In this document: positions 7,212 to 27,225 of the stretch, one piece after another
Layout of the letters: every line of letters starts with the position of its first letter
Numbering within the stretch: position 1 is the stretch's first letter
Virus record (IMG/VR): IMGVR_UViG_2700989400_000002
Length of the DNA stretch: 35,737 nucleotides
From: a virus
Lineage: Duplodnaviria > Heunggongvirae > Uroviricota > Caudoviricetes
Direction: 5' to 3' (one strand)
The notes under the pieces: model-generated
Databases searched by the model: none
The model's input: the letters and a program-made list of their open reading frames with translations, nothing else
What the model was told of the DNA's origin: nothing
Program-made: the position numbers and the translations under genes

Positions 7212-7736
7212 ATGCTGTTTCTGTGTAAACCGTTTCAGGAGATTAAAGTGATTACTTTTCAGACTATAAGAGATAAGTATATTGAAATCGTTCGGTTACA
7301 GAGAGAGGAAAAAGAGCGTTTACAAAATATTGTTGGGCTGATTGCGAAAAACTTTGAGGGGTCGCTTGAGCTTGAGCAAACTTGCTGGGGTTATCCAGGG
7401 CAAAATCCCACTGAAAATTATGTTTTTGTCGCTGCAATTAAAGATGGTGAAAAATCTAAAGTTCAGTTACACGATCTGTTGCCTGATGCAGATGGGGTTT
7501 TGTCATTTTTTATTGGTCTTACGGTGGATAAGTCACCGGTTGCTCATCCTAAGTTAAACGTGATTATTCCTTTGAAACTGCTACGTGAAGGGAATTGCTT
7601 TACGCTGGTAATAGGAAGCGGGGAATTCGAAATGAACTTAAGTGAAAAGCCAGCATTGCAAGAGCTTGAGGCTGTATCTGAAGCACTGAAACAAGCTGTA
7701 ATCAGAGACCTTGAATCTTACATTCCGGTGCGCTGA
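7212..7736 (+). CDS. hypothetical cargo protein (174 aa), no recognisable motif
   Basis: ORF with RBS (aggggg); moderately AT-rich; lies between the early-operon hairpin and cos, the slot occupied by tin/old in P2. An alternative GTG start at 7248 is possible. Confidence 0.55.
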   Translation: MLFLCKPFQEIKVITFQTIRDKYIEIVRLQREEKERLQNIVGLIAKNFEGSLELEQTCWGYPGQNPTENYVFVAAIKDGEKSKVQLHDLLPDADGVLSFFIGLTVDKSPVAHPKLNVIIPLKLLREGNCFTLVIGSGEFEMNLSEKPALQELEAVSEALKQAVIRDLESYIPVR

Positions 7737-7991: not shown

Positions 7992-9929
7992 ATGATTGCT
8001 GGAGTTTTTATAAGGAACTTTAAAACATACCAGGGGATAAATTACGTTCCTGTAAGTGATTCATCAAACTTGAGTGGTTTTCTTGGAAATAATGGCATTG
8101 GCAAAAGTTCTGTTTTAGAAGCATTGGATTGTGTATTTAATGATAGTTCATGGAACTTAAATATTGTTGTTAAGAAAAGTGGGTTAGAAAAAACAGAACC
8201 ATATATTGTCCCATTTTTTATCCTTGAACATGACTTTTTTGATAGTCTTCATCTACCATATGCACAAACATTAGATAAAATAGCTAGGACTATAACTGTT
8301 GATGACTCAACAAATCCTGCAACCAAATCGATAATAAGTGATTTTATTCATCATCGAGATAGGATTATTTCCAGAGGGGATGTGGATGGGAAGTTTTTAA
8401 TTCCTATAGGCCAAAACCATGAAGGAAAGATTTCCCTTTCTGTATTTAAGTCGAAGGTTATATCTTTCATGGATGAAAATGAGTTTGGAATCGAGTTTGA
8501 TAATTTGATTGAGTCTGAAGAGTATGTATCTTTATTTCAATCCTTATATATATACATATGTAATGCCTTGGAGTATCTTTATATACCGAAGGAGATTGAT
8601 AGCGAGTCTTTCACAAAGTTAGAAAGTATGGGGACTCAGGTACTCATGGGAGAATCCTTACATAAAATTTTGGATAGGATTGTTGGTGATAGCACTGTTT
8701 CCCAGATTAATAAAGAGTTAAATGGGTTTCTTGAAGATATATCTGGAAAGTTAATTAGTTATTCATATCGCACACCTACAGACAGACAAAAAAGGATTCA
8801 AAAGCGAGAGGTTTATAATCTTATTATAGAAGCCTTCTTCAATGTAAGAAAACTTCATAAAAATCAAGGCTCTGATTATTATCTGGAGATTAATTCTTTA
8901 AGTTCAGGTGAAAAGCAAAAAGCAATTATTGATGTTGCGCATGCTTTATTAACAAAACACCGCCAAGATGGAGGGCGTTTAATTATTGCAATTGATGAGC
9001 CTGAGTCATCACTGCATATGTCTGCGTGCTTTGAGCAATTTAATGCTCTTGCTGAATTGAGCCATAATTGCAGGCAGTTATTGTTCTCATCACATTGGTA
9101 TGGATTCTTACCTACTTTAGATTGCGGTTGCGTAACAATAATAACAAAGAAGGATTCAGAGCATAAGTTTGACTTAATTAATCTTGCTTCTTATCGCGAA
9201 GAGGTCAGGCAGTTAATAAGCTCAACTAATGGGAAAATGCCATTTGATATAAGGATAAAGAGTATCAATGATTTTATTCAGTCTATTGTAACCAGTGCTA
9301 CAGGAGATAATCCATATAACTGGATTATATGTGAGGGTACGTCTGAAAAAGTTTACTTGTCAGATTATTTCAAAGACCTTATGTGCGAAAGGAATCTTAG
9401 GATAATTCCGGTTGGTGGTGCAAAAGAGGTTAAAAGGATTTATGAGCAATTGGCTGCTTGTCATAAAGATATATCTGCGGAGTTGACTGGTGTTATTTAT
9501 TTATTATCAGATACCGATGTACAGCAAGTAAAATATCCAGTTGAGAAGTTGAAGAATATTTACTGTAAAAGAATTGTTTTCGATAAATCTGTGGGGAAAA
9601 CCGTTTTAGTAGATATAAATGGTAATCCTTCGTCACCTGCGACTGCCATAGAAGATTGTCTTAATGGGCAGGTGTTTCATCGAACTTTAATGACATATGT
9701 TTCTACTTATCCTCAGATTAGCTTTATCGCTACAGCACCAGTTAATGATTGTGATAATGAATCATTTAATTATTATGATCTTAGAACTTCTGAAAAGGAT
9801 GCTATCTTGGGTTTTTTTGCTGAGAATAATATGAAGTATGAATTTGCGCTGAAGTATAACTCTGAAAAATGCGATAGTGACTCAGTACCAGATTGGATTC
9901 AGAATGTAAAGGAAACGTTTCTGAAGTAA
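7992..9929 (+). CDS. OLD-family-like nuclease candidate: ABC-type ATPase plus C-terminal Toprim (646 aa)
   Basis: Walker A GNNGIGKS (8085..8108), signature-like LSSGEK, Walker B/D-loop LIIAIDEPESSLH (about 8980..9010), Toprim-like ICEGTSEK (E-G at 9333..9338) and LLSDTD (9510..9518); AT-rich. Start taken at ATG 7992 (RBS aagagg); the ORF track begins at GTG 7983. Confidence 0.65.
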   Translation: MIAGVFIRNFKTYQGINYVPVSDSSNLSGFLGNNGIGKSSVLEALDCVFNDSSWNLNIVVKKSGLEKTEPYIVPFFILEHDFFDSLHLPYAQTLDKIARTITVDDSTNPATKSIISDFIHHRDRIISRGDVDGKFLIPIGQNHEGKISLSVFKSKVISFMDENEFGIEFDNLIESEEYVSLFQSLYIYICNALEYLYIPKEIDSESFTKLESMGTQVLMGESLHKILDRIVGDSTVSQINKELNGFLEDISGKLISYSYRTPTDRQKRIQKREVYNLIIEAFFNVRKLHKNQGSDYYLEINSLSSGEKQKAIIDVAHALLTKHRQDGGRLIIAIDEPESSLHMSACFEQFNALAELSHNCRQLLFSSHWYGFLPTLDCGCVTIITKKDSEHKFDLINLASYREEVRQLISSTNGKMPFDIRIKSINDFIQSIVTSATGDNPYNWIICEGTSEKVYLSDYFKDLMCERNLRIIPVGGAKEVKRIYEQLAACHKDISAELTGVIYLLSDTDVQQVKYPVEKLKNIYCKRIVFDKSVGKTVLVDINGNPSSPATAIEDCLNGQVFHRTLMTYVSTYPQISFIATAPVNDCDNESFNYYDLRTSEKDAILGFFAENNMKYEFALKYNSEKCDSDSVPDWIQNVKETFLK

Positions 9930-9967: not shown

Positions 9968-10987
9968 CTAGAAATTATAATCTTTAAATGCCACAATATC
10001 CTGACCGAGCCAGCCGTTTATTTCCCGAATCCTGTCCTGTAGCGGGATAAGCTCATTGCGGACAAAGACCTTTGCCACTTTCTCAATATCACCCAGCGAC
10101 CCGACGTTCTCCGGCTTGCCGCCCATCAACTGAAAGGGGATGCGGTGCGCGTCCAGCAGGTCAGCGGCGCTGGCTTTTTTGATATTAAAAAAATCGTCCT
10201 TCGTTGCCACTTCACTGAGCGGGATAATTTTAATACCGTCGGCTTTCCCCTGCGGGGCATAGAGAAACAGATTTTTAAAGTTATTGCGGCCTTTCGACTT
10301 AACCATGTTTTCGCGAAGCATTTCGATATCGTTGCGATCCTGCACGGCATCGGTGACGTACATGATGTATCCGGCATGTGCGCCATTTTCGTAATACTTG
10401 CGGCGGAACAGCGTGGCCGACTCATTCAGCCAGGCAGAGTTAAGGGCGCTGAGATATTCCGGCAGGCCGTACAGCTCCTGATTAATATCAGGCTCCAGCA
10501 GGTGAAACACGGAGCCGGGCGCGAAGGCTGTCGGCTCGTTGAAGGACGGCACCCACCAGTAAACATCCTCCTCCACGCCACGGCGGGTATATTTTGCCGG
10601 TGAGGTTTCCAGTCTGATGACCTTACCGGTGGTGCTGTAACGCTTTTCCAGAAACGCATTACCGAACACCAGAAAATCCAGCACAAAGCGGCTGAAATCC
10701 TGTTGCGAAAGCCACGGATGCGGGATAAATGTCGAGGCCAGAATATTGCGTTTAACGTAAATCGGTGAGCTGTGATGCACGGCAGCACGCAGGCTTTTCG
10801 CCAGACCGGTAAAGCTGACCGGTGGCTCATACCATCTGCCGTTACTGATGCACTCGACGTAATCCAGAATGTCACGGCGGTCGAGTACCGGCACCGGCTC
10901 GCCAAAGGTGAATGCTTCCATTTTCGGGGAGCTGGCGGTCATTTTTTTTGCCGCAGGTTGCGGTGTTTTCCCTTTTTTCTTGCTCAT
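9968..10987 (-). CDS. Q: portal protein (339 aa)
   Basis: P2 gpQ-like size and position; start overlaps the P stop by 1 nt. Confidence 0.85.
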   Translation of the reverse strand: MSKKKGKTPQPAAKKMTASSPKMEAFTFGEPVPVLDRRDILDYVECISNGRWYEPPVSFTGLAKSLRAAVHHSSPIYVKRNILASTFIPHPWLSQQDFSRFVLDFLVFGNAFLEKRYSTTGKVIRLETSPAKYTRRGVEEDVYWWVPSFNEPTAFAPGSVFHLLEPDINQELYGLPEYLSALNSAWLNESATLFRRKYYENGAHAGYIMYVTDAVQDRNDIEMLRENMVKSKGRNNFKNLFLYAPQGKADGIKIIPLSEVATKDDFFNIKKASAADLLDAHRIPFQLMGGKPENVGSLGDIEKVAKVFVRNELIPLQDRIREINGWLGQDIVAFKDYNF

Positions 10988-18258: not shown

Positions 18259-18688
18259 TGCCGTCACGGTGCTGAAAACCAGCCCCGAGATGCTGCGGAT
18301 ATTCGTGGATAACGGGAGTATTGCCTCCACACTGGCGACGTCGCTGTCATTTGAAAAGCGTTACACGCTCAATGTCATTGTGACCGACTTTACCGGTGAT
18401 TTTGACCTGCTCATCGTGCCGGTGCTGGCGTGGCTGCGGGAAAATCAGCCCGACATCATGACCACCGACGAAGGCCAGAAAAAGGGCTTCACGTTTTATG
18501 CGGACATCAACAATGACAGCAGCTTTGATATCAGTATCAGCCTGATGCTGACCGAGCGCACGCTGGTCAGTGAGGTTGACGGCGCGCTGCATGTGAAGAA
18601 TATCCCGGAACCCACGCCGCCGGAGCCCGTCACCCGCCCGATGGAGCTTTATATCAATGGCGAACTGGTGAGCAAGTGGGATGAATGA
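18221..18688 (+). CDS. R: tail completion protein R (155 aa)
   Basis: Length and position as P2 gpR. Confidence 0.8.
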   Translation: MLKPDSLRRALTDAVTVLKTSPEMLRIFVDNGSIASTLATSLSFEKRYTLNVIVTDFTGDFDLLIVPVLAWLRENQPDIMTTDEGQKKGFTFYADINNDSSFDISISLMLTERTLVSEVDGALHVKNIPEPTPPEPVTRPMELYINGELVSKWDE

Positions 18689-19133
18689 GTTTAAGCGTTT
18701 TGAAGACCGGCTGACCGGACTTATTGAATCGCTGTCACCGTCAGGGCGTCGGCGACTGAGTGCCGAACTGGCGAAACGTCTGCGGCAGAGTCAGCAGCGT
18801 CGGGTGATGGCACAGAAAGCCCCGGACGGCACCCCCTACGTGCCACGCCAGCAGCAGAGCGCCAGAAAAAAGCCCGGTCGTGTTAAGCGAAAAATGTTTG
18901 CGAAACTTATCACCAGTCGTTTTTTGCATATCCGCGCCAGCCCGGAACAGGCATCAATGGAGTTTTACGGCGGGAAGTCACCGAAAATCGCCAGTGTGCA
19001 TCAGTTTGGTCTGTCGGAAGAAAACCGGAAAGACGGTAAGAAAATTGATTATCCGGCGCGCCCTCTGCTCGGCTTTACCGGTGAGGATGTGCAGATGATT
19101 GAAGAGATTATCCTGGCTCACCTTGAGCGTTAG
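18681..19133 (+). CDS. S: tail completion protein S (150 aa)
   Basis: Length and position as P2 gpS. Confidence 0.8.
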   Translation: MNEFKRFEDRLTGLIESLSPSGRRRLSAELAKRLRQSQQRRVMAQKAPDGTPYVPRQQQSARKKPGRVKRKMFAKLITSRFLHIRASPEQASMEFYGGKSPKIASVHQFGLSEENRKDGKKIDYPARPLLGFTGEDVQMIEEIILAHLER

Positions 19134-19162
19134 TTTTATCCAGGCAGAGGCTGATGCGCAAT

Positions 19163-19199
19163 TAAACATTGAGCGGCCATGCTGGTCGCTCAATGTTTA
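19163..19199. terminator. hairpin between convergent S and the antisense cargo gene (13-bp stem taaacattgagcg / cgctcaatgttta)
   Basis: Perfect 13-bp inverted repeat with 11-nt loop between the two convergent stops. Confidence 0.45.
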
Positions 19200-19204
19200 G
19201 AGGT

Positions 19205-19990
19205 TTATGAGTGATTTTTATTTGATGCTTTGTATTCTAAAACCTTCTTATTGGCGTAAAAGAATTTTGTATATGACAGGAATATAACCAGACCTGAAGT
19301 GAAATAGACGAGGGATAGTATTAATAATGCTTTTTTGTGACTGTTATTATCTTTAATCTCCTGGCTTAACCATTCGGAGTCCTCCTCGTTTAGCTGTAAG
19401 AGCTTATTGCAGGCGATTTCAGGAAGTGTGTCTTTTATAAATACGTTTTGCAGTCTCTTGCAATCGGCAAGGCTATAAGTTTTATTAAATTCAACTGCTT
19501 TATTTTTGAAGGATAAAAGAACTTTGTCACTATAAACATAGTACATCATGTTTTTATATGGTATGCCTATGGCATCCCTTACTATAACGGATTGTTCGTT
19601 GTGTATGTAACATGCGAGGAGAATGTAAAAAATACTGGCCAGAATTACAATTATTGTTTTAATTATGTGTGGTGGTTTTGTTATGTCACCCCAGATGCGA
19701 GTAAGGAAAAAATACGATGTTTTTAGTTTTCCATCAATCAGTCCCTGCTGTATCATTCTCACATTTTCAATGCCTGATACATTGATTCCGTTAATTATTT
19801 TAAATAGTTGAATGTCGCGCCACTCGCGGTCAAGTCTTTTTAATTTTTTGTCTGAATATCCAAAATTGAAATAATGTGCAATAAGCCTCATAAGGTTACT
19901 TTTACCAAAGCTAAAAAATGCTAATACTGCAAAGCTACAAAGGAAAAAAACGATTAGCCCCCACACATTAGTCACATTATAGCTGACCAT
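19205..19990 (-). CDS. AT-rich integral membrane protein (261 aa, about 3 TM helices), P2 orf30 slot
   Basis: Antisense to the late operons; hydrophobic segments near residues 9-28, 108-128 and 222-241; strongly AT-rich. Confidence 0.6.
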   Translation of the reverse strand: MVSYNVTNVWGLIVFFLCSFAVLAFFSFGKSNLMRLIAHYFNFGYSDKKLKRLDREWRDIQLFKIINGINVSGIENVRMIQQGLIDGKLKTSYFFLTRIWGDITKPPHIIKTIIVILASIFYILLACYIHNEQSVIVRDAIGIPYKNMMYYVYSDKVLLSFKNKAVEFNKTYSLADCKRLQNVFIKDTLPEIACNKLLQLNEEDSEWLSQEIKDNNSHKKALLILSLVYFTSGLVIFLSYTKFFYANKKVLEYKASNKNHS

Positions 19991-20073
19991 TACGCTCTCC
20001 TTGGATGTTGTCTGGTAGTTCTACAAATGAATCCAGATAGCATAACTTTTATATATTGTGCAATCTCACATGC

Positions 20074-20709
20074 ATGAACACTCTCGCAAATATTCAGGAA
20101 CTCGCGCGCGCACTGCGCAACATGATTCGCACCGGCATTATCGTCGAAACCGACCTTAACGCCGGTCGCTGCCGCGTGCAGACCGGCGGCATGTGCACCG
20201 ACTGGCTTCAGTGGCTGACCCATCGCGCAGGACGTTCGCGCACATGGTGGGCACCTTCCGTGGGGGAACAGGTGCTGATTCTGGCCGTGGGTGGTGAACT
20301 CGACACGGCGTTCGTTCTGCCGGGGATTTATTCCGGCGATAACCCCTCGCCGTCTGTGTCGGCGGATGCCCTGCATATCCGTTTCCCTGACGGGGCGGTG
20401 ATTGAATATGAACCCGAAACCAGTGCACTCACGGTAAGCGGAATTAAAACGGCCAGCGTGACGGCTTCTGATTCTGTTACTGCCACGGTGCCGGTGGTCA
20501 TGGTGAAAGCATCAACCCGCGTCACCCTGGACACCCCGGAGGTGGTCTGCACCAACAGGCTGATTACCGGCACGCTGGAAGTGCAGAAGGGCGGGACGAT
20601 GCGCGGCAACATTGAACACACCGGCGGTGAACTCTCATCAAACGGTAAGGTACTGCATACCCATAAACACCCCGGCGACAGCGGCGGCACAACCGGGAGT
20701 CCTTTATGA
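20074..20709 (+). CDS. V: baseplate spike/assembly protein V (211 aa)
   Basis: ATG at 20074 gives 211 aa as in P2 gpV; the ORF-track start is a TTG extension. Confidence 0.85.
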   Translation: MNTLANIQELARALRNMIRTGIIVETDLNAGRCRVQTGGMCTDWLQWLTHRAGRSRTWWAPSVGEQVLILAVGGELDTAFVLPGIYSGDNPSPSVSADALHIRFPDGAVIEYEPETSALTVSGIKTASVTASDSVTATVPVVMVKASTRVTLDTPEVVCTNRLITGTLEVQKGGTMRGNIEHTGGELSSNGKVLHTHKHPGDSGGTTGSPL

Positions 20710-25611: not shown

Positions 25612-27225
25612 ATGAGCAATTCATTTTCAATTACACTACCTACAAAAGAAAAAGACCTAGCGGAAATAGAGACTAATCAGAGCGTGCTTATTATCGGTGC
25701 GAATGGCTCTGGAAAGTCTCGCCTTGGGACATGGATGGATCTAAAATCTCCTCAAAGAAATATTGTTCATCGTATTTCCGCTCAGCGGGCTTTAGCGATG
25801 CCTGACCATACAACACCAACTTCGCTTCAACAAGCACAGAATAATTTACTCTATGGAATTGAAAATTTGGAAGGGTCGGAACTACTTTGGTATAAAGAGA
25901 ATTATCGCTGGGGAAGTAAACCTGCCATATCATCATTAAATGATTATGGTAAATTAATGGTGTATCTCTTTTCAGACAAAATTGAAGAAAACTCGAAATA
26001 TATTGAATTAGTTAAATCTTCAGAAAAAAGAATTGAACCAACGACGACTAAATTAGATAAAATTAAATATATTTGGGAAAAAACATTACCTCACCGAGAG
26101 CTTGTTTTAGGCGGTTTGACAATTCAAACACGAGCAAAAGGAAATAACGAGGCTGTCTATAACCCCTCGGAAATGAGCGACGGTGAGCGAGTTATTTTCT
26201 ATCTGATTGGGCAATGTCTTGCAGCACCCGAAAATGGAATTATTGTCATAGACGAGCCAGAAATTCATCTTCACAAATCTGTACAAGTTCCATTATGGAA
26301 GGATATAGAAAAACTCCGACCTGATTGCCTGTTTGTATATATGACTCATGATACTGATTTTGCTGCAGCACTGCATGATGCAAAGAAAATCTGGTTAAAA
26401 AGTTATGATGGTTCCAGTTGGGATTGGGAAGATGTTCCCGATGTCGAAGGCCTACCAGAAAGTTTATTAATTGAAATATTGGGTAGTAGAAAACCAATTG
26501 TTTTTGTTGAGGGGGAAAATGGAAGCTATGATGTATCCCTTTATCGTGCTGTGTTAAATAGTTATCTAGTGATACCATCTGGTTCTTGTAGTCAAGTAAT
26601 ACAAAATGTTAAAGCTCTAAGAGCCAGTGAAAAACTCCATTATATGGAAGTTTTTGGTATTATTGATAGGGATAGACGTGTTGAAAATGAAATTCAATCG
26701 CTTCTGGAATACGGTATTTATACTCTAAGCGTGGCTGAAGTCGAAAATCTCTTTTGCGTTCCGGAAGTTATAACTTTAGTTAGCGAACGATTAGTCAGGA
26801 ATCCAGATAAAGATCTACAATCAGTTAAAGATTTTGTGTTCCGTAAAATATCCTCAGAGCTGGATACTCAGATTTCACTGCGTGTGGCTGGCGAAATTAA
26901 ATTCATGCTTAATTGTTTTGATGAAAAAGCAAAAGGGGTCGATGCTCTTAGTAGAGCTCTTGAGTTGTTGACGTCACAAATTAATGTTAAAGAGCTTTAT
27001 GATGAAAGTTTATCTCTGTTTAATAATGCAGTTGAGAAACGTGATTATCTTCTTGCATTAAAACTTTATAACAGGAAAAGCCTTTCATCCCAAGTAAGTA
27101 AGCATCTGGGGCTGGCTAATGGACAGCTTGCTGAATTAGTGGTCAGGATGGCTAATAATGAAAGTGGAGAGTCAATGAGAAATGCTCTCAGACCATATTT
27201 TGGTGAGTTTTCGAGTAAAATATAG
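25612..27225 (+). CDS. ABC-type ATPase fused to Toprim/DUF4435-like domain (537 aa), Z/fun-slot cargo
   Basis: Walker A GANGSGKS (25696..25719), SDGER signature-like, Walker B/D-loop IIVIDEPEIHLH (D-E-P-E at 26251..26262), Toprim-like VFVEGENGSYD (26509..26517) and IIDRD (26665..26673); strong RBS aaggaggg; AT-rich. Confidence 0.65.
   Translation: MSNSFSITLPTKEKDLAEIETNQSVLIIGANGSGKSRLGTWMDLKSPQRNIVHRISAQRALAMPDHTTPTSLQQAQNNLLYGIENLEGSELLWYKENYRWGSKPAISSLNDYGKLMVYLFSDKIEENSKYIELVKSSEKRIEPTTTKLDKIKYIWEKTLPHRELVLGGLTIQTRAKGNNEAVYNPSEMSDGERVIFYLIGQCLAAPENGIIVIDEPEIHLHKSVQVPLWKDIEKLRPDCLFVYMTHDTDFAAALHDAKKIWLKSYDGSSWDWEDVPDVEGLPESLLIEILGSRKPIVFVEGENGSYDVSLYRAVLNSYLVIPSGSCSQVIQNVKALRASEKLHYMEVFGIIDRDRRVENEIQSLLEYGIYTLSVAEVENLFCVPEVITLVSERLVRNPDKDLQSVKDFVFRKISSELDTQISLRVAGEIKFMLNCFDEKAKGVDALSRALELLTSQINVKELYDESLSLFNNAVEKRDYLLALKLYNRKSLSSQVSKHLGLANGQLAELVVRMANNESGESMRNALRPYFGEFSSKI

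Follow-up and report, generated by a model that had tools for sequence, protein, structure and literature searches.

Bacteriophage P2 is a founding model of temperate phages, and orf30 is among its last genes without a role. The P2 record (AF063097) annotates it merely as 'nonessential', and its function is listed as unknown in a later study (PMC3091744). The orf30 locus is one of three loci with horizontally acquired genes in P2-like phages, beside the TO and Z regions (PMC3091744). The TO and Z slots hold highly diverse, unrelated defence systems (PMC9122126), and the hotspot studies of P2-like phages treat loci other than orf30 (PMC9122126; 10.1101/2024.10.15.618418). Here we analyze a DNA stretch of 35,737 nucleotides from the IMG/VR virus record IMGVR_UViG_2700989400_000002 (the window, to which positions refer unless another locus is named), focusing on an antisense gene between the tail-completion gene S and the baseplate gene V. 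A previous reading of the sequence alone (the sequence-only reading) had placed this gene in the slot of P2 orf30 and had proposed that it encodes a lysogenic-conversion membrane protein, acting for example in superinfection exclusion or abortive infection. We find that a known gene of unassigned role has been re-identified, and that a defence reading of it is plausible. What is new is the picture of its family: an indirect link to DUF6216, a slot shared across genera, constant AT-richness, fast evolution, survival in decayed prophages and a predicted topology.

The interval 19134-20073 corresponds exactly to the S-V intergenic region (940 bp), and the strongly AT-rich minus-strand open reading frame (ORF) of 261 amino acids that had been described there is indeed present:

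19134 to 20073, no strand: AT-rich island between S and V, GC 0.35 versus about 0.58 in the flanks.
19205 to 19990, minus strand: orf30 coding sequence, 261 amino acids plus stop, 99.6% identical to P2 Orf30 and matching phrog_2407.

The GC content is 0.338 in the ORF, which starts with ATG, and 0.352 over the whole interval, versus 0.55-0.61 in the flanking 300-nt windows and 0.507 in the complete window. S (18681-19133) and V (20074-20709) are both on the plus strand, so the gene runs antisense to the late operons, also as claimed. A 2.1-kb region around it shows 98.8% nucleotide identity with P2 (AF063097, 8834-10934), whose annotation transfers onto the window without indels at a coordinate offset of +9766. 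The protein has the same length as P2 Orf30 (AAD03281.1, 'putative 30.4 kDa protein') and differs from it by one residue (99.6% identity), and its residues 1-261 of 261 match the family of unknown function phrog_2407 in a PHROG profile search (E = 5.5e-149). By these alignments the feature is near certainly P2 orf30 itself, in a P2-type Escherichia coli prophage. The position given by the sequence-only reading thus stands, with the correction that the gene is not an analogue occupying the same slot.

The same reading had described three hydrophobic helices separated by charged loops, and three kinds of evidence agree on this layout. Kyte-Doolittle hydropathy in 19-residue windows peaks at residues 9-27 (2.41), 109-127 (2.59) and 221-239 (2.25); hydropathy averaged over 33 homologues brings out these three segments again; and AlphaFold2, run on the 33-sequence alignment, places helices on all three. 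This model has a predicted local distance difference test score (pLDDT) of 85.2 and a predicted template modelling score (pTM) of 0.76, whereas an earlier 6-sequence model reached a pLDDT of 72 only. Its helices span residues 6-28 (the first transmembrane segment, TM1), 30-40, 48-67, 74-86, 91-94, 109-133 (TM2), 174-179, 189-198 and 202-260 (containing TM3), and its strands residues 141-145, 148-152, 156-160 and 170-173. Stretches rich in Lys, Asp and Glu separate the hydrophobic segments (25 Lys, 11 Asp and 10 Glu in the protein). The predicted layout along the gene is as follows:

19910 to 19966, minus strand: TM1, residues ~9-27, preceded by a short uncharged N-terminus predicted to be periplasmic (Kyte-Doolittle, AlphaFold2, charge bias).
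19667 to 19909, minus strand: loop 1, residues ~28-108, predicted cytoplasmic helical domain (alignments, charge, AlphaFold2).
19610 to 19666, minus strand: TM2, residues ~109-127 (Kyte-Doolittle 2.59, AlphaFold2 helix 109-133).
19331 to 19609, minus strand: loop 2, residues ~128-220, predicted periplasmic, four strands and two helices, with C177 and C194 (AlphaFold2, cysteines, charge).
19274 to 19330, minus strand: TM3, residues ~221-239 (Kyte-Doolittle 2.25, AlphaFold2 helix 202-260).
19208 to 19273, minus strand: Lys-rich tail, residues 240-261, predicted cytoplasmic (charge +2.1).

Given these predictions, Orf30 is near certainly an integral inner-membrane protein with three TM helices. 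Across the family the net charge is -0.8 at the N-terminus, +2.4 after TM1, +1.6 before TM2, +0.4 after TM2, +0.06 before TM3 and +2.1 in the C-terminal tail, and loop 2 has exactly two cysteines in 32 of 33 members, with C194 invariant. Because of this family-wide charge bias and of a cysteine pair exclusive to loop 2, the predicted topology is N-out, loop 1 cytoplasmic, loop 2 periplasmic and C-in, with a probable C177-C194 disulfide. The model thus predicts a cytoplasmic helical domain of 80 residues and a periplasmic beta domain of 90 residues. The top family motif lies in loop 1 (D-x-Q-L-F-[RK]-x3-G-[IV]-N-V-x4-D-A-x2-I-x7-G-x-L), and G29, Q61, G68, D76 and G87 are invariant or nearly so in the family alignments. 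We rejected a cleavable signal peptide or a lipoprotein, as the N-terminal region carries no positive charge and no conserved lipobox.

The genomic setting of the family is strikingly uniform. Our survey of IMG/VR found 78 orf30 loci, 76 of them with flanking sequence. All 76 carry the gene in antisense orientation next to V and/or S, and those with both flanks have it between the two. In loci L081-L084, Orf30 relatives of 34-40% identity sit in the same slot of phages whose R, V and W are 69-86%, and whose S is 47-51%, identical to those of the window. The slot is again the same for relatives of 23-24% identity (Serratia liquefaciens L007, L091; Sodalis L092; metagenome L093), and a relative of only 16% identity is flanked by S (L095). 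Wherever the context could be recovered (Escherichia, Serratia, Sodalis and metagenomes), orf30 is a single gene that lies either in the V-S gap of a P2-like prophage, in antisense orientation, or in what is left of such a prophage after decay. No member was seen in an unrelated context, except that a copy at the end of an Enterobacter contig is visible from one side only. By this synteny the Orf30 family is a long-standing resident of the V/S gap in P2-like phages (Peduoviridae) of Enterobacterales.

We estimated selection on 50 distinct E. coli-type alleles; 67 IMG/VR loci gave a coding sequence that was full-length and free of gaps and stops. The dN/dS values are pairwise averages and are descriptive only. 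The Orf30 protein evolves several-fold faster than those of its structural neighbours: the mean rate of synonymous change (dS) is 0.110 in orf30 versus 0.074-0.105 in R, S, V and W, that of nonsynonymous change (dN) is 0.050 versus 0.006-0.013, and dN/dS is 0.45 versus 0.08-0.15, i.e., 3-6 times higher. By region, dN/dS is lowest in loop 2 (0.19), followed by loop 1 (0.32), TM2 (0.46), TM1 (1.26) and TM3 (1.65, on few sites). The loops are under purifying selection. Since their dN/dS is 0.19-0.32, and since the architecture is shared by homologues of as little as 16% identity, orf30 is a real coding gene under selection. That no function, phenotype or promoter is known for it would fit a spurious or decaying ORF without protein function, an explanation refuted by selection and conservation and retaining next to no probability: the ORF is intact in the 67 loci just mentioned, motifs and cysteine pair are kept over 33 members, the AlphaFold2 model is confident and the Shine-Dalgarno sequence is strong.

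Allele distances correlate moderately with distances between phage backbones (Mantel r = 0.40, reached in 0 of 2000 permutations). The backbones of different orf30 allele groups are hardly more distant than those of one group (0.025 within versus 0.028 between groups), which argues for some allele shuffling. Moreover, L093 and L081-L084 have similar backbones, yet Orf30 identities of 24% versus 34-40%, which suggests that divergent alleles have been exchanged within the S/V slot.

Every member of the family is AT-rich, with GC of 0.30-0.36 and third-codon-position GC of 0.25-0.37, versus 0.47-0.59 in hosts and flanks. The classical interpretation of such low GC would be a recently imported, P2-specific foreign 'moron', in line with the step from 0.34 to 0.58 in GC, with the absence of the gene from most P2-like phages and with the listing of the locus as horizontally acquired (PMC3091744). 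This explanation is largely refuted, and we regard it as very improbable. The dS of orf30 (0.11) equals that of its flanks (0.07-0.11); homologues of 16-40% identity occupy the same slot in the same orientation, in phages whose V and R are just 58-86% identical; and all homologues are equally AT-rich, third codon positions included. A recent import into P2 is disfavoured by the equal dS, by the deep synteny and by the AT-richness of all members. We favour instead AT-richness as a maintained trait of the family, and not as a mark of recent entry. The data thus do not show the freshly imported AT-rich moron that the sequence-only reading implied; the lysogenic conversion that it proposed gains indirect support from decayed prophages.

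In Serratia and relatives, five loci (L006, L086, L088, L089, L090) share one chromosomal site, between a gene for an Asp-Al_Ex transporter and ecotin. In L090 and L086 the Orf30-like gene has fragments of V, S or R as neighbours, in L088 and L089 just an ASCH gene remains with it, and in L006 it lies immediately outside a newer 186-like prophage. The site has the appearance of P2-like prophages at successive stages of decay, in which the Orf30-like gene, often together with the ASCH-domain gene, outlasts the structural genes; L090 also carries Hcp and DUF4225 genes. The copies at this site are intact (249-255 amino acids) in all loci except L090, and two of them differ at 38% of residues with a dN/dS of 0.24. 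Intact copies that outlive Serratia P2-like prophages under such constraint are indirect evidence suggesting a benefit on the host side.

Such a benefit could be unrelated to phage defence. Orf30 could be a conversion membrane protein giving immunity to a toxin (a pore-forming colicin or a type VI secretion system effector), tolerance to envelope stress or an advantage in colonisation. Retention in decayed prophages, dispensability for the phage and an inner-membrane topology with a periplasmic domain fit this explanation equally well. The Hcp and DUF4225 genes of the L090 remnant also speak for it, and immunity proteins against pore-forming colicins are small multi-pass inner-membrane proteins. 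We consider it unlikely, if still worth weighing, given that intact prophages show no toxin gene linked to the family, that Orf30 has no similarity to known immunity families, and that the strict tie to one phage lineage and one slot is more easily explained by a phage-related function.

In E. coli the slot is more often empty than filled. The S-V region is present in 1587 of 5426 complete genomes, with 458 of the 1587 matches covering the orf30-filled form; most of the others consist of two pieces spanning 1227 bp, i.e., an empty slot, and about 70% of the genomes having the S-V region are without orf30. The slot of phage Wphi is empty as well. In the empty-slot prophage L003 a 66-bp spacer stands where the window has its 940-bp island. 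Similarity ends directly after the S stop and restarts ~13 nt before the V ATG; the island thus includes not only orf30 but also a hairpin downstream of it and the region of the late promoter pV with its Ogr activator site. The L003 spacer (L003 735-800) lacks the AT-rich pV/Ogr region of P2, so the orf30 island carries its own version of the promoter region of the V operon. Immediately before V the spacer contains a hairpin rich in GC (GCCGCCGG-TATGA-CCCGGCGGC); it also contains a TGT-N10-ACA element.

A third state of the slot is ORF16 of phage R18C (L096 1081-1821, plus strand), a sense-strand ORF of 246 amino acids with GC 0.36 and a CxxC...H-rich N-terminal region, which is unrelated to Orf30 (cf. 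PMC6823313). E. coli FDAARGOS_1285 has a copy of it frameshifted into two ORFs (L004 752-1494). From the loci compared, the S/V slot appears to be of low diversity: empty, filled by the Orf30 family, or filled by an R18C-type sense-strand ORF. We also observed additional genes next to diverged Orf30 relatives. L081 (6916-7737, minus strand) and L007 (11085-11879, minus strand) carry a second family between the Orf30-like gene and S, with proteins of 273 and 264 amino acids that are 27.5% identical (E = 1e-27) and have a hydrophobic N-terminal region; L091 has at the same position a different gene, of 356 amino acids, and a V fragment. By an hmmsearch using the profile of the family, neither ORF16, nor the two L004 ORFs, nor the extra genes of L081, L007 and L091 belong to the Orf30 family, and the same ORFs, the two second-family proteins among them, have no Pfam or PADLOC match.

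Sequence searches show the family to be small. A word-indexed search of 5.8 billion proteins returned just four close clusters (80-98% identity) and one relative at 39%, while a HMMER profile search of 1.84 billion representatives returned 44 proteins, about 25 of them full length (250-270 amino acids) with the same three hydrophobic segments. All 33 aligned members match phrog_2407, and none of the 33 matches an annotated PHROG. Among 50,697 phage records, tblastn with the distant member P0006 recovered only the same 21 P2-type records, and with the distant member P0040 none; a scan of genome contigs found no relative. Orf30 has no Pfam match even at E <= 1, and no similarity to functionally named Pfam or NCBIfam families, to annotated PHROGs or to known immunity families. 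Nine of 25 members weakly match DUF6216 (PF19723), all below threshold except P0030 from Sodalis, which passes the gathering score over its full length (28.9 versus 27.3 bits). The gene of P0030 is also antisense between V and S, and its hhalign probability against the Orf30 profile is 98%. Orf30 itself fails the DUF6216 gathering threshold of 27.3 bits, and the link is transitive through P0030 alone. Orf30 thus appears to be a divergent, indirectly linked relative of DUF6216. As DUF6216 is without known function, the link names the family without explaining it.

The reading we favour, at somewhat less than an even chance, is that Orf30 acts at the inner membrane and there interferes with other infecting phages. 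The gene would serve the lysogen and not virion production, and would be transcribed independently of the late operons, ending at the hairpin that it shares with S. The interference could take two routes. The periplasmic domain may meet the ejection machinery of an incoming phage and block entry of its genome (superinfection exclusion), or the cytoplasmic domain may sense infection and the helices compromise the membrane (abortive infection). Through its constant AT-richness the gene would stay subject to H-NS-type silencing, which would hold in check a membrane protein that may be toxic. In agreement with a role in the lysogen, orf30 is dispensable for the phage, being nonessential in P2, missing from the empty slots common in E. 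coli and missing from Wphi. It also shows traits of a moron, an independently transcribed accessory gene of prophages: deviant base composition, dispensability and its own (putative) terminator hairpin. Both other variable slots of the same prophage are filled by defence genes.

The Z/fun slot, between the tail-fibre assembly gene G and the sheath gene FI, encodes a fused PARIS-type protein of 537 amino acids (25612-27225, plus strand), matching the fused AriAB model of PADLOC (PDLC02982, E = 1.9e-187) and the Pfam families AAA_21 and DUF4435. The TO (old/tin) slot encodes an OLD-like ATPase of 645 amino acids (7992-9929, plus strand), with Pfam AAA_15 and AAA_21, a sub-threshold match to the OLD-like TOPRIM domain (22.5 versus a cut-off of 23.2 bits) and weak PADLOC matches to AriA, AbiLi and Old; it may be an uncharacterised variant of the OLD family. 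It is preceded by an ORF of 162 amino acids without family match (7248-7736, plus strand). Over the S-V region this prophage is 100% identical to that of E. coli MB07081. An IS3-family element splits its integrase at ~1-1596 (L005 722-2997; RefSeq annotation of the 100%-identical NZ_CM129880), and the prophage can probably no longer leave the chromosome.

We extended the favoured reading to a wider claim, that Orf30/DUF6216 is an unrecognised single-gene anti-phage system of the inner membrane, residing in a third, low-diversity slot of P2-like phages, long carried across Enterobacterales, kept AT-rich for H-NS-type silencing and retained by the host after prophage decay. In this full form the claim is doubtful. 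Reportedly, a 2026 preprint on H-NS silencing of antiviral immunity mentions DUF6216 once and 'prophage' 25 times, and neither orf30 nor phage P2; part of the anti-phage reading of DUF6216 may thus have been reported already.

Several observations weigh against a defence function. The scan of PADLOC-DB v2.0.0 gave no family for Orf30 at E <= 1, while the AriAB and OLD-like genes of the window were detected as positive controls; NCBIfam gave no meaningful match, and a sequence-profile search of the PDB no match. Foldseek gave no match at E <= 0.001, either in the PDB with the first model or in BFVD with the better one, and among solved and viral predicted structures the only resemblances were to helical bundles of a generic kind and to claudin-like membrane proteins. 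Values of dN/dS above 1, confined to TM1 and TM3, may reflect relaxed constraint on membrane anchors and not an arms race. Orf30 is also much larger than the superinfection-exclusion proteins known from a comparable location. To our knowledge, the classical exclusion phenotypes of P2 lysogens have all been attributed to old, tin and fun(Z). The same attribution is echoed in a recent study (10.1101/2024.10.15.618418). No phenotype is attributed to orf30, and the defence mechanism is our best guess. The sequence-only reading had named two findings that would count against it. Of these, close identity to a P2 orf30 without phenotype is found as far as the identity goes (99.6%), with the P2 record saying only 'nonessential', whereas a lack of membrane topology is not, three TM helices being predicted by hydropathy, charge bias and AlphaFold2.

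The weak point of the conversion claim is the putative expression from the prophage. The signals around the gene are the following:

19162 to 19200, no strand: hairpin, putative bidirectional terminator (folding energy and P2 annotation).
19997 to 20002, minus strand: Shine-Dalgarno sequence AAGGAG, 6 nt before the orf30 ATG (read in the sequence).
20005 to 20032, plus strand: Ogr activator site of the late promoter pV (transferred from P2 misc_feature 10239-10266).

The hairpin with a 13-bp stem that had been noted between S and the ORF is there: a perfect inverted repeat (TAAACATTGAGCG / CGCTCAATGTTTA) at ~19162-19200, between the convergent stops of S (19133) and orf30 (19205). As RNA it grows to ~18 pairs, with a folding energy of -30.2 kcal/mol (z = -4.35, none of 200 shuffles equally stable), and the minus-strand version folds too (z = -3.6). 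P2 is annotated at this place with a 'putative rho-independent terminator for O operon' (P2 9397-9433, window 19163-19199), and the hairpin is probably a bidirectional terminator for the S and orf30 transcripts. The sequence of 19162-19200 has no canonical U-tract on either strand, for which reason we count terminator activity as inferred.

On the upstream side, the 83 bp between the starts of orf30 and V are mostly taken up by pV and its Ogr site, which sits within the AT-rich island 15 nt from the orf30 ATG. A standard scan found no sigma-70-like site reaching threshold upstream of this ATG, and the best relaxed candidate (GTGAGA-19-TATGCT, 8 of 12 matches, 19-nt spacer) is poor. Alignment across diverged loci shows that the conserved parts of this spacer resemble pV elements, and promoter-like sites upstream of orf30 homologues in these loci are not in excess over shuffles. 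That no convincing sigma-70 promoter was found, and that pV and its Ogr site fill most of the spacer, counts against the defence reading as well. We considered a leftward Ogr-dependent promoter using the pV site and rejected it, since the geometry puts the transcription start inside the ORF.

These signals bear on another explanation, that orf30 is a non-essential accessory of the lytic cycle or of infection, made during infection and acting in lysis timing, in protection against secondary adsorption or injection, or in genome entry or exit. The start of orf30 only 15 nt from the pV Ogr site, with no independent sigma-70 promoter evident, is in its favour, as are the confinement of the family to P2-like phages, the adjoining lysis and tail genes and the partial tracking of the backbone by the alleles (Mantel r = 0.40). 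The N-out/C-in layout with three helices is formally that of class I holins. Nevertheless, we judge it to be decidedly improbable. Being antisense to all late operons, orf30 is uncoupled from the late transcription that depends on Ogr, and the only Ogr site has a placement that suits pV and not a leftward promoter. Intact copies remain where every structural gene has decayed. Finally, holins and antiholins are far smaller than Orf30 with its two folded loop domains, and P2 already has Y, LysA, LysB and LysC. A holin proper was rejected on similar grounds (261 amino acids, two loop domains of 80-90 residues, no holin match in Pfam or PHROG); a holin of its own is encoded in the lysis cassette of the prophage.

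If the favoured reading of Orf30 as a defence or exclusion protein is true, ~8% of complete E. coli genomes (458 of 5426) carry an unannotated immunity gene acting at the membrane level, DUF6216 gains a function, and old, tin and fun of P2 are joined by a fourth defence gene of lysogenic conversion. The pattern itself is unusual, combining one slot, one orientation and constant AT-richness with fast protein change and survival in dead prophages, and it contrasts with the free swapping of cargo in the two well-studied hotspots of P2.

Compared with known systems, the closest is P2 orf30 itself, with the same position, orientation, hairpin and pV/Ogr site and a protein differing by one residue; the integrase of the window is in addition interrupted by the IS3-family element. 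DUF6216 proteins resemble Orf30 in length (~250-270 amino acids) and layout, although Orf30 has no direct Pfam match. Like orf30, the cargo loci old, tin and fun(Z) of P2 are non-essential, variable and AT-rich; the TO and Z slots, however, swap unrelated cargo, whereas the S/V slot is of low diversity and the Orf30 family in it is homologous across genera. Class I holins are proteins of ~70-110 amino acids with short loops, encoded in the lysis cassette, and Orf30 fits none of these features. Sie-type proteins of temperate phages are expressed from the prophage. With P22 SieA, T4 Imm and HK97 gp15 the analogy is functional only: like Orf30 they are single, small to medium-sized phage-encoded inner-membrane proteins dispensable for the phage, the shared location being in the case of Orf30 a prediction, whereas Orf30 has no sequence or fold similarity to them and differs by its larger size and its two folded loop domains.

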